From UHGV virus genome UHGV-1428471: a stretch of DNA of 24,250 nt; one strand, 5' to 3'. This DNA comes from a virus. How positions within the stretch are numbered: the first letter of the stretch is position 1; every line of letters begins with the position of its first letter. Made by a program: the position numbers. Of the stretch, positions 9,001 through 12,000 are shown piece by piece.

Positions 9001-12000
9001 GGCAGCAAGATTACGCCTGGTTAAACCGAAACGGCGTAAAGACTACAAACAGCGAATTACAGAGCATCAGCGTCAGCAGCTCGTCTATGAACTGAAGTCC
9101 AGAGGATTTGATGGCAGCGAGAAAGAGGTCGATTTGCTCCTTCGCGGTGGCAGTATTCCGTCAGGAGCAGGCCTGCGTATCTTCTATCGGAACCAGCGTT
9201 TGCAGGAAGATGATAAGTGGCGGAACCTGTATTAATTACGCGGGTTAACAATTCGTGCTCTTAATAATACCAGGCATATCAGGCTGATGAACGTAAAAAA
9301 ACGTTTTACATCAGTAAGATTATTATATACTGTAAATATAAACAGTGGTTATGTATACAGTATTGCTTGTGGTGTCATAGGAGGAAAGATGCAGGACTAT
9401 TTTTTGGAGTCTTTGAAGCTCCAGCGCATTGATTTTTTTCTTAAGCTTGTAGCGGCTAGTGAGTGTAGTGATGAAGAAAAGGGGCTGGCTCTGCAGTGGG
9501 TTTCTGAATTGACTGATGAACTCATGGCAAAAATCAGAAGCCACGAATACAACCGCTCAATGGATGTCATCAGCTGAGGTGACTTTTATGCGCATTGAAA
9601 TAATGATCGATAAAGAGCAGAAGATTAGCCAGTCTACCCTGGACGCCCTTGAATCCGAGCTTTACCGCAATCTGCGCCCCCTGTATCCCAAAACGGTAAT
9701 TCGCATTCGCAAAGGTAGCTCTAACGGTGTGGAACTAACCGGACTGCAACTGGATGAAGAAAGAAAACAAGTGATGAAAATTATGCAGAAGGTGTGGGAG
9801 GACGACAGCTGGCTGCATTAAGAAATGTTGCCCCCAGGAGGATTCATTCTGATGGGGGCTAGTTTGGGCAATGAGTGAAATAAGGCGTAAGGTGGGCGGT
9901 TATTTTGATAAGTGATCGTCCGCTTTGTGTCAGAAGCAGAAGTGGGAGTGTCTGAGACTCTCTAAAAGTTGATGATTCACTTACAAAACCATTTTCCTGA
10001 TGGATGCTTACACTTACGAATGATCATTCTGTTTAGTCTTCATGAGAAAATCCCGAATCTTTGCCAAGTTTGAATTTTCGGGGATTGAATCCATGTACGG
10101 ATCACGCTCAAACACTAATTGCTCAGATTCAACGAAAGCCTGCCACTCTACTGGGTCTAGCTCAAATCCCATTGCTGTCATATCACTTTCATCTTCCCCC
10201 TCGATCCAGTGGACTAAATAAAACAATTCATCATCAGGAGAATCATCCTCACCATCAACAATATCAACATCGGTTACAGTGATACGTAGGGTGGGATCGA
10301 TTTTTGAGACATAAATTCCTAACTGTGGTATAGGGGGAATATTGTTCATGGAAACTCCTTTTATTGGTGTTTGCTATTTGAATAAAAATACGCCAAACAG
10401 AGTGTTAACTGTGAATATGGAAAGAATCGTTGTAAGTACCCCGCTTAGGTGTCCCATTCTATTTTAGAGGTTCTCGTGCATATGGATTATGTTATCTGAA
10501 AGTTAACTTCCGCTTCCCGTTCACAGCGAACATTCATCTTTGTAAACCCGTATGATCCGTTTTTCAAGTGGCCATTCAGATACGGATTTTTACTTCTTTG
10601 ACAGTGCATGACTATGCTGCATGAAATCGCATGATCGATTGAGGATCGTCTTTGCTCAGATCCGCCAGAACTGGCGGGCTTTTGCTCATGTCATGCATGT
10701 GCATGAAAACCACTGCATAAAGCGGGCAGGCGTGGCGGGGATACGAGCGCGCGCAACGGGGTGAAATGGTGAAAATCCGGCGCAGTCTCCGGCACGCTGG
10801 CGGCTTCAATCGGTGAGGGTGAGGGAGCGGCAGCAAAAAAGAAGCGCCCCGCAGAATGCTGCTGGGGCGCTGTGGGGCGGTCTTGTTGTCGTGGTGCGGT
10901 GGGTCAGTCGTTACGCTTGTCTTCTGTCAGTCCCAGCGTGTACGGCTCAAAGCGGATCACTTCTTCGCCCAGCCAGTCGTTAAGCTCCTGCAGTCGCTTC
11001 TGCAGCGGCATCAGCTCGTTGCGGACAAAGACGCGGCTGGCCTTTTCCACATCACCAAAGCCGCCGGTATTGTTGGGAATAATGCCCATCATCTGCGGCG
11101 GTACGCGGTGCGCTGCCATCATGTCATCGCGGCTCACGTTCTTGATGTTCAGAAACTCATCTTTCGCCGCAACCTCCGATAACGGGATGATCTGGATGCC
11201 GTCCTTTTTACCGTTGGGCGAATACATAAACAGGTTGCGGAAGTTGCCCGGCCCTTTGGCGCTTTTCATTGCCTGGCGGATATTGTTCACGTCCTCCTGA
11301 TTCTGTGCTGCGTCGGTCATGTACATGATGAAACCCGCGTGGCTGCCGTTGATATAATACTTCCGGCGGAACAACGTTGCGGACTCGTTGAGCAGGGTTG
11401 ACGGGATGGCGGAAAGATAGCCGGGCAGCCCGTAAATCTCCTGGTTAATATCTGGCTCCAGCAGATGAAAGATGTTGCCCTGCGTAAATTCATAGGGCTG
11501 CGTGGTCAGGCCATACTGCACAAACCAGTAAGTGTCGAGGTCCACGCCACGGCGTGTGTACTTCGCCAGTGCTGGCTCCAGTGAGAGAACACCGCCGAGC
11601 CGGTTGGTGCGCTTTTCCAGATAGGCGTTACCGAACACCAGATAATCCTGGACGAAACGGGCAAAAGCCTGCTGGCTGAGCAGGCGGTGCGGGATGTAGG
11701 TGCTGCTGAGAATGTCACGCTTTACTGCAATCGGTGAACTGTGATGCACGGCGGCGCGATAGGTCCGCGCCAGTCCGTCAAAGCTCACCGGCGGCTCATA
11801 CCAGCGGTCCATCTGCACGCATTCCACGTAGTCCAGCAATTCGCGTCGGTCTAACACCGGCACCGGGTCGCCAAAACTGAACGCCTCCGCCGCAGCGCCG
11901 CCTGATTTAGCGTTGTGATCTACCGCTGCGCGGTTATTCTTGTTTTTACGTTTGCTCATGCCGCCTGCTCCTTGTCAGCCTGGGGCCATTCGCACATAAA

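Follow-up and report, generated by a model that had tools for sequence, protein, structure and literature searches.

How does a P2-like prophage with a 186-type immunity repressor turn DNA damage into lytic growth, and which of two small adjacent genes is responsible? These questions are raised by a locus in UHGV-1428471, a viral genome sequence of 24,250 nucleotides (nt) that was analyzed over its whole length and is called the window here. An earlier note on this DNA had described a LexA box, a 62-amino-acid (aa) open reading frame (ORF) and a DinI-like ORF as a split version of the phage 186 antirepressor gene tum. We find that the window is a prophage of the P2-like, Fels-2 type (Felsduovirus-like) that neighbours rcdA in an E. 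coli chromosome, and that the module is very probably an SOS induction operon, with a LexA-repressed promoter, an antirepressor (TumA) that acts against the CI repressor, and a second protein (TumB) that is a modulator and not the inducer. This layout is real but is already known and ordinary, as it has been described and genetically tested in near-identical phages.

Two Overlapping SOS Boxes Cover the Predicted -10 Region

The perfect CTGT-N8-ACAG sequence reported in the earlier note is present at 9330-9345 (CTGTAAATATAAACAG). It forms the core of SOS box 1 (TACTGTAAATATAAACAGTG, plus strand, 9328-9347), of whose 20 positions 17 agree with the LexA consensus TACTGTATATATATACAGTA. Where 0.25 copies of CTGT-N8-ACAG would be expected in the window there are two, and the 20-mer consensus, with up to three mismatches allowed, occurs once (0.00 expected from 100 shuffles), marking the box as non-random. 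All 13 related phages that we examined carry a TACTGT-N8-ACAGT box in the same place. When we aligned the promoter regions of 12 phages, only a -35 element and this box, at fixed spacing, were invariant, and all other positions diverged.

The -35 element, TTTACA (plus strand, 9305-9310), was read from the sequence and is the equivalent of TTCACA, the annotated -35 element of the 186 p95 promoter. The aligned columns read TT(T/C)(A/C)CA, of which the TT.(A/C)CA positions are invariant in the 12 phages. After a 17-nt spacer comes the probable -10 element, TACTGT (9328-9333), which lies within box 1. This assignment comes from homology with 186 p95 only; the 186 record annotates TACTGT as the p95 -10 element and shows the LexA site overlapping it. 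An alternative -10 hexamer, TATACT (9326-9331), would leave a 15-nt spacer. A scan for consensus promoters found none at the site, because the TACTGT hexamer is weak. The predicted LexA box overlaps the probable -10 element and is homologous to the LexA site of 186 p95.

The operator is double, a feature absent from the earlier note. A second SOS box (plus strand, 9343-9362; core GTGGTTATGTATACAG at 9345-9360) overlaps the first, such that the two 16-mers have one base in common. The combined pattern, CTGT-N9-CAGTGG-N8-ACAG, occurs once in the window and is expected 0.00 times. Double boxes are also found in Fels-2, SopEPhi, Yersinia phage MLG42, Klebsiella phage ST437phi4.1 and two colicin promoters. 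Among the phages compared, they are absent from 186, PSP3, SEN1, EtG, Kp4882-2, BIS20, ESSI-2 and ev015. In E. coli 504239, the weak half-site of box 2 is GTGA rather than GTGG.

The link to colicins came from a distant BLAST search of the promoter against plasmids, which led to small Col plasmids. A 43-nt stretch is 86-88% identical to DNA located ~40 nt upstream of the genes for colicin N and pore-forming colicins. Colicin operons (colicin N and the E1-type pore formers) have two SOS boxes in the same overlap register, ...ACAGTGGTTAT(G/A)T(A/G)TACAGTAT, and our operator has this register as well, with 16-mers that overlap by one base (CTGT-N8-(A/C)CAG followed directly by TGG-N8-ACAG). Approximately 35 nt, including the non-consensus GTGGTTAT half-site, are nearly identical between the colicin and tum operators. 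However, the -10 element is upstream of box 1 in the colicin promoters and overlaps box 1 in this prophage, and the genes downstream of the colicin operators are unrelated to tumA and tumB. This colicin-type arrangement of two overlapping boxes, absent from 186 and PSP3, is a modest addition of our own. Two LexA dimers are reported to occupy the double boxes of colicin operons, with very tight repression as the result (PMC2994835). By analogy, two LexA dimers may occupy the tum operator, and the induction gene would then be locked more tightly here than in 186. The likeness could reflect either common descent of a regulatory cassette or convergence under the constraints of LexA binding.

The First Gene Is a Remote Homologue of the N-Terminal Half of Tum

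The first gene of the operon, which we call ORF62 or tumA-like, encodes 62 aa (plus strand, 9389-9577; ATG at 9389, stop codon at 9575-9577) and is preceded by a Shine-Dalgarno sequence, GGAGGA (9380-9385), 4 nt upstream of the ATG. From the ACAG of box 1 to the ATG we measured 43 nt, close to the 45 bp estimated earlier. A mechanical ORF list instead gives a 96-aa ORF from 9287, which the earlier note did not mention and which we rejected. Since this extension starts upstream of the promoter and its added residues are not conserved in homologues, the 62-aa reading is correct.

Simple searches revealed little about this protein. BLASTP yielded no alignment between ORF62 and 186 Tum, and no Pfam, NCBIfam or PADLOC model matched it. 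ORF62 does belong to the protein family phrog_698 (E 5.9e-38), with weak matches to phrog_8554 and phrog_1993, and residues 1-70 of 186 Tum match the same three families (phrog_1993, 2e-23; phrog_8554, 3e-12; phrog_698, 6.7e-6). An exhaustive profile search of 1.84 billion cluster representatives recovered 86 relatives of ORF62, nearly all of them standalone proteins of 55-75 aa. We aligned a diverse ORF62-family profile with a profile of the 186-type Tum N-terminal half (Tum-N) using hhalign, and obtained a gapless match over residues 5-44 of both (Prob 96.7%, E 3.5e-10). This result supersedes a first comparison made with a shallow ORF62 alignment (Neff 1.4), which gave a probability of 22.7%. 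The two families have the motif (Q/E)R(I/V)(D/E)(L/M)...(L/V)...C...(D/E)(K/R)(E)(L/I)A(L/I).(W/L)(I/V)(A/S)E(L/I) in common. Moreover, a hidden Markov model of the ORF62 family scored Tum at 33.5 bits, compared to at most 7.7 bits for 4000 shuffled controls. As the sequence identity between ORF62 and Tum-N is ~20%, their relationship is visible to profile methods only. By these methods, ORF62 and the N-terminal half of 186 Tum are remote homologues.

An AlphaFold2 model of ORF62 (pLDDT 89) predicts a two-helix hairpin, with helices at residues 2-23 and 28-61 and a conserved Cys26 in the turn. Comparison of the ORF62 sequence with solved structures found no relative, and a Foldseek search with the model returned only generic helical hairpins (E >1). 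Compared to diverged relatives (synonymous divergence, dS, ~0.8-1.4), the ratio of nonsynonymous to synonymous substitution (dN/dS) is 0.07-0.09 for ORF62, indicating strong purifying selection.

The Second Gene Encodes a Phage Paralogue of DinI

The second gene, ORF77 (tumB or DinI-like; plus strand, 9588-9821), encodes 77 aa. As the earlier note had observed, it starts 10 nt past the ORF62 stop codon, and its ribosome-binding site (RBS) overlaps that stop codon. ORF77 matches the Pfam DinI family (PF06183) over the full profile (positions 1-63 of 63; 81.3 bits, E 6.6e-23, cut-off 24.2) and aligns end to end with E. coli DinI (PDB 1GHH, E 2.7e-6). Its score against the NCBIfam DinI equivalog model NF007893 is 42.7 bits, below the cut-off of 111, which argues that ORF77 is a phage paralogue and not DinI itself. 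E. coli DinI (1GHH, 7YWA) is 81 aa long, compared to 77 aa for ORF77, and both contain a C-terminal W-E-(D/S)-x-D-W motif. This acidic and tryptophan-containing motif is the only trait with a bearing on RecA that the alignment to 1GHH shows in ORF77. By analogy with host DinI, the most likely role of ORF77 is to bind RecA filaments and so adjust how strong the SOS signal is or how long it lasts.

Aligned with residues 71-145 of 186 Tum, ORF77 shows 41% identity (E 3e-24), and it is 78% identical to PSP3 TumB. With tblastn, its alignment in 186 begins at nt 29292, the annotated GTG start of an internal 77-aa product. Like ORF62, ORF77 is under strong purifying selection (dN/dS 0.07-0.09 against relatives with dS ~0.8-1.4), which marks both as genuine genes. 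The proposal that the pair corresponds to the two halves of Tum therefore holds for both genes, by profile methods for ORF62 and by direct alignment to both Tum and DinI for ORF77.

We considered a hairpin at 9566-9583, which contains the ORF62 stop codon and the ORF77 RBS and appeared terminator-like in our scan, as a translational coupler. It was rejected, with a z-score of -1.3 and no conservation in SopEPhi, MLG42 or ST437phi4.1. A second hairpin, GCCCCCA...TGGGGGC (plus strand, 9830-9859), could be a weak terminator after tumB, an assignment of low confidence. Its predicted energy is -19.7 kcal/mol, its z-score is only -1.6 and its U tail is poor; the 186 record places the partial terminator t95a in the matching position.

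The Module Has Been Described and Tested in Near-Identical Phages

The module lies 3' of gene A, between this gene and the opposite-strand packaging genes, where the early region has its right end, in a P2/186-like genome with a 186-type CI. Its DNA is 97% identical to Salmonella phage Fels-2 over 584 nt (STM2728 and STM2726.1). Dozens of phages of Klebsiella, Salmonella, Escherichia and Yersinia carry it at 90% identity or more, and 1125 of the 5426 complete E. coli genomes contain it, B-lineage and C strains among them. The Fels-2 proteins match ORF62 at 96.8% and ORF77 at 100%, and the double SOS operator is identical in type. In contrast, Fels-2 CI is only 39% identical to the CI of this prophage, and both Fels-2 and DuoHS, a P2-like prophage of E. 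coli HS, differ from it in the cargo 3' of tumB and between int and cI.

Functional evidence comes from DuoHS, which is not inducible by mitomycin C in lexA(Ind-) or delta-tum strains (Phollow study, Nat Microbiol 2025; PMC12055606). The primers used for the delta-tum mutation, NHR24 and NHR28 (...GTGGTGTCATAGGAGGAAAGATG joined to TGAGGTGACTTTTATGCGCATTG), match positions 9369-9391 and 9575-9597 of the window with zero mismatches and join the ATG to the TGA of the 62-aa ORF. Since the match is perfect, the "tum" that was deleted in DuoHS is exactly the 62-aa ORF, and the DinI-like gene was kept. SopEPhi induction also occurs via SOS-dependent Tum expression, as cited in the literature. STM2726-2728 are listed among the differentially expressed operons in an MX toxicogenomics paper; the text covered gives no direction of change, and we did not use it as evidence of induction.

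Our findings also agree with what the earlier note said of 186, namely a LexA-controlled Tum with a DinI-like C-terminal part. In 186, p95 is LexA regulated, and Tum sequesters CI to derepress pR (PMC7708051). The 186 record lists p95 with its LexA site, tum ("expression repressed by LexA; inhibits CI DNA binding") and the internal GTG-start product of 77 aa ("truncated Tum - modulates SOS induction"). As here, p95 is LexA repressed, with its -10 element inside the SOS box, at the same genome position and with a 186-type CI as target. However, 186 has a single SOS box and encodes both parts in one frame of 146 aa, with a linker of ~25 aa and an internal AAGGAGG RBS and GTG start exactly where ORF77 begins.

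PSP3 (NC_005340) has the same two-gene layout as this prophage, behind a LexA box and 3' of gene A. Its GenBank notes describe TumA as "similar to 5' end 186 tum; UV induction of prophage" and TumB as "similar to dinI and 3' end of 186 tum". PSP3 differs in its single SOS box, its 3-nt intergenic gap (10 nt here) and its TumA, which belongs to another branch, phrog_1993, that ORF62 matches at E 0.002 only. According to Lemire et al. (2011), Tum resembles an antirepressor fused to DinI, the tum genes of Fels-2 and PSP3 are split by a stop codon, and the antirepressor activity of PSP3 resides in the upstream gene (PMC3121763). The Gifsy dinI-gfoA/gftA operons are likewise LexA controlled and encode a small antirepressor and a DinI homologue, although dinI comes first and the antirepressor and repressor families differ (PMC3121763). 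The checks that the earlier note proposed have essentially been made in these sister phages. It had raised the possibility that the split is informative about how the antirepressor evolved and what each half does; this question does have an answer, but one that is already in the literature (PMC3121763; PMC12055606).

TumA Type Follows CI Type Only Coarsely

The presumed target of TumA is the 186-type CI immunity repressor, encoded on the minus strand at 3127-4077. PGAP annotates it at its full 316 aa as "phage repressor protein CI". It contains two tandem Phage_CI_repr helix-turn-helix (HTH) domains (Pfam; ~aa 20-90 and 130-197), followed by Phage_CI_C, whereas 186 CI is 192 aa long and has one HTH. 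Co-linear homologues in Klebsiella phages 4LV2017 and ST11-VIM1phi8.4 are 52-61% identical over aa 1-307. When phages were grouped by TumA type, identity to this CI was 39-61% for the ORF62 type, 36-43% for the ESSI-2 type, 34-36% for the 186 type and 30-32% for the PSP3 type. As far as these identities indicate, TumA type follows CI type, but only coarsely.

Since a near-invariant TumA is found with variable CIs, TumA would have to contact a part of the CI surface that is conserved, or else work by a mechanism of lower specificity. This hints that TumA may recognize a conserved surface of CI and that cross-induction is possible. We suggest tentatively, and would not be surprised to be wrong, that the double operator sets a higher and later SOS threshold than the single boxes of 186, PSP3 and ESSI-2, and that TumA, being of broad specificity, may co-induce heteroimmune P2-like prophages in the same cell. 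In the literature covered, which did not extend to Bunny et al. (2002) and Gillor et al. (2008), we found no paper stating the threshold or the broad-specificity point.

An SOS Induction Operon Best Accounts for the Module

We propose the following sequence of events. In the lysogen, LexA bound to the double operator 3' of gene A would cover the -10 region and start site and keep the operon silent. After DNA damage, active RecA would promote self-cleavage of LexA, and the operon would be transcribed. TumA, the 62-aa helical hairpin, would then bind the 186-type CI and stop it from holding the lytic promoter, resulting in lytic growth. TumB, the 77-aa protein, would not be the inducer; by binding the RecA filament, it would tune the SOS signal and hence the kinetics of induction. 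The anatomy, homologies and conservation of the module are our observations, and the need for LexA cleavage and for the 62-aa gene has been demonstrated in the literature for near-identical phages. Direct binding of TumA to CI in this prophage, two LexA dimers on the double operator and modulation of RecA by TumB are inferences.

Several points weigh against this proposal. The experiments come from sister phages of this prophage. The in-frame deletion in DuoHS could lower translation of the DinI-like gene if the two genes are coupled, such that TumB could still have some part in induction. TumA proteins that are at least 97% identical accompany CIs that are only 39-61% identical to the one described here. 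The proposed -10 hexamer, placed through homology, is weak, and the scan found no consensus promoter at its site. For box 2, whose left half is GTGG and not CTGT, LexA binding is suggested only by the likeness to colicin operators. Finally, the role of TumB is drawn from its family membership and from the 186 annotation "modulates SOS induction".

One alternative is that induction is really due to ORF77, through an effect on RecA or CI, for example, and that ORF62 is an accessory protein or a leader peptide for ORF77 expression. In 186, both parts do belong to one antirepressor protein of 146 aa, and, because of the 10-nt gap and the overlap between the ORF77 RBS and the ORF62 stop codon, deletion of ORF62 could be polar on ORF77 translation. 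However, the hairpin between the two ORFs, a potential coupler of their translation, is not conserved, and the upstream gene of PSP3 is the one reported as the antirepressor (PMC3121763). ESSI-2-type phages have the SOS box and a TumA-like gene but no DinI gene, and the internal 77-aa product of 186 is annotated as a modulator, not an inducer. The low dN/dS of ORF62 and its broad family of standalone 55-75-aa proteins also argue against a leader or accessory role. We consider this alternative very unlikely.

A second alternative, which we also regard as very unlikely, is that the pair is an SOS-regulated "moron" that damps RecA coprotease activity and mutagenesis for the benefit of the host and has no role in induction. 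DinI-family genes do occur in many prophages that are induced by other routes, such as Gifsy-2 and PY54, and PGAP calls ORF62 merely a "hypothetical protein". Such a role is difficult to reconcile with the DuoHS genetics, in which the ORF62 boundaries covered by the primers are identical to those in the window, with the homology of ORF62 to the N-terminal half of Tum, with a position equal to that of tum in 186, or with the correspondence between TumA type and CI type at the family level. The remaining possibility, that CTGT-N8-ACAG arose by chance as a palindrome within AT-rich intergenic sequence and that LexA does not control the operon, can be practically dismissed: although a second perfect copy at 1300-1315 and the failed promoter scan are compatible with chance, the 20-mer is expected 0.00 times, the box is invariant in 13 phages while its flanks diverge, its homologue in 186 p95 is annotated as a LexA site, and lexA(Ind-) blocks DuoHS induction (PMC12055606).

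tumA and tumB Exist Fused, Split and in New Combinations

We compared the arrangement of the two parts across phages and found three architectures that share the SOS box. The fused form is found in 186, EtG, BIS20 and Yersinia MHG75 (annotated at 137-146 aa) and, as inferred from an ORF scan, in the unannotated Kp4882-2 (146-aa ORF). The split form is found in PSP3, SEN1, Fels-2, SopEPhi and the window. In the third form, seen in the P2-like phages ESSI-2 and ev015, the SOS box is kept and a TumA-like ORF, 41-49% identical to ORF62, stands alone with no DinI-like gene. Since these phages retain the box and the TumA-like gene, the DinI part is dispensable for the design. In both phages, the TumA-like ORF directly borders on two opposite-strand genes, first a small minus-strand ORF and next the portal gene.

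No fusion of an ORF62-type protein to DinI was found among the best 120 close homologues or among the 86 relatives from the cluster representatives. Standalone 186-type proteins exist, and 186 retains a perfect RBS and a GTG start within its linker, the latter at the position that corresponds to Met1 of ORF77, TumB and DinI. Together, these features suggest that the two-gene operon is ancestral and that 186 Tum is a fused, derived form, in line with Lemire et al. (PMC3121763). This, too, is a modest addition of our own.

The standalone 186-type proteins, of 63-78 aa, are found in Salmonella, Kluyvera and Enterobacter. Their identity to 186 Tum-N is 79-84%, at a query coverage of 87%, and a few carry the name "Tum protein". 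A similar protein of 76 aa occurs in Edwardsiella, and some other short matches look like frameshifted tum genes. The existence of standalone Tum-N proteins argues that splits also arise within the 186-type lineage.

The two genes also differ in their affinities. TumB of the SEN1/PSP3 type, as represented by Salmonella phage SEN1, is 96% identical to the ORF77 homologue of Klebsiella phage ST437-OXA245phi4.1 (ST437phi4.1 above). BLASTP detected no similarity between the TumA of this Klebsiella phage, which is 85.5% identical to ORF62 of the window, and the PSP3-type TumA of SEN1. As the same two phages have near-identical TumB and dissimilar TumA, a recombination joint lies at the tumA/tumB boundary. 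That tumA and tumB reassort independently, as judged from these comparisons, is likewise a modest addition of our own.

Consequences for Annotation and Induction

Because the split tum, its LexA control and the upstream antirepressor have already been published for Fels-2, PSP3 and DuoHS, the value of the window as a discovery is small. The module is found in about a fifth of complete E. coli genomes. The practical value concerns annotation. Pipelines call the antirepressor a "hypothetical protein" (the PGAP name for ORF62) or sometimes a "levan regulatory protein", labels that also occur in public data, and many gene callers over-extend it to the 96-aa ORF. Public gene calls often stretch the 62-aa protein to 84-109 aa, starting upstream of its own SOS promoter. 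As a result of this mislabeling and over-extension, annotation under-predicts which prophages are inducible. Two minor, testable refinements, the double SOS operator and a tumA/tumB pair that reassorts freely, bear on induction thresholds and on cross-induction among co-resident P2-like prophages.

Genomic Setting and Other Features of the Window

The gene order starts with int (minus strand, 214-1266), followed by two cargo genes (minus strand, 1355-3167) that lie between int and cI. After cI come an apl-like gene, cII, fil and a Dam methylase gene, in that order, and then the replication gene A (gpA; 6821-9235; Pfam Phage_GPA). Beyond tumB, a 351-aa ORF on the opposite strand (10904-11959) occupies the place of the Fels-2 portal gene Q and is assigned by position. 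The interval between tumB and this ORF (9822-10903) holds variable cargo. Here it contains a 111-aa acidic ORF on the minus strand (10014-10349) that belongs to phrog_17127, a family of unknown function, and has no Pfam or PADLOC match. Fels-2 has two other genes in this interval, and E. coli 504239 has a 141-aa hypothetical protein.

The cargo between int and cI is a two-gene defence cassette. One gene encodes a GmrSD_N/DUF262 protein (PADLOC NsnA, 1.4e-65; PD-T4-2_A, 2e-55) and the other a HEPN_RiboL-PSP protein (PD-T4-2_B, 1.6e-8). From these matches, the cassette resembles a PD-T4-2-like system at a P2-type cargo position. The int-to-cI arrangement is rare: coverage of positions 1-4100 of the window reaches 80% or more in 10 of the 5426 complete E. 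coli genomes.

A promoter-like sequence that faces int, TTGACC-18-TAAATT, contains in its spacer the second perfect CTGT-N8-ACAG (1300-1315; minus-strand sequence CACTGTATATAAGCACAGTT). Within 1272-1322 on the minus strand, this promoter-like site is followed by a GC-rich hairpin and a T-run that end 5 nt before the int ATG. From its sequence, this segment may serve as a promoter or attenuator of int under SOS control, or may instead terminate the defence operon.

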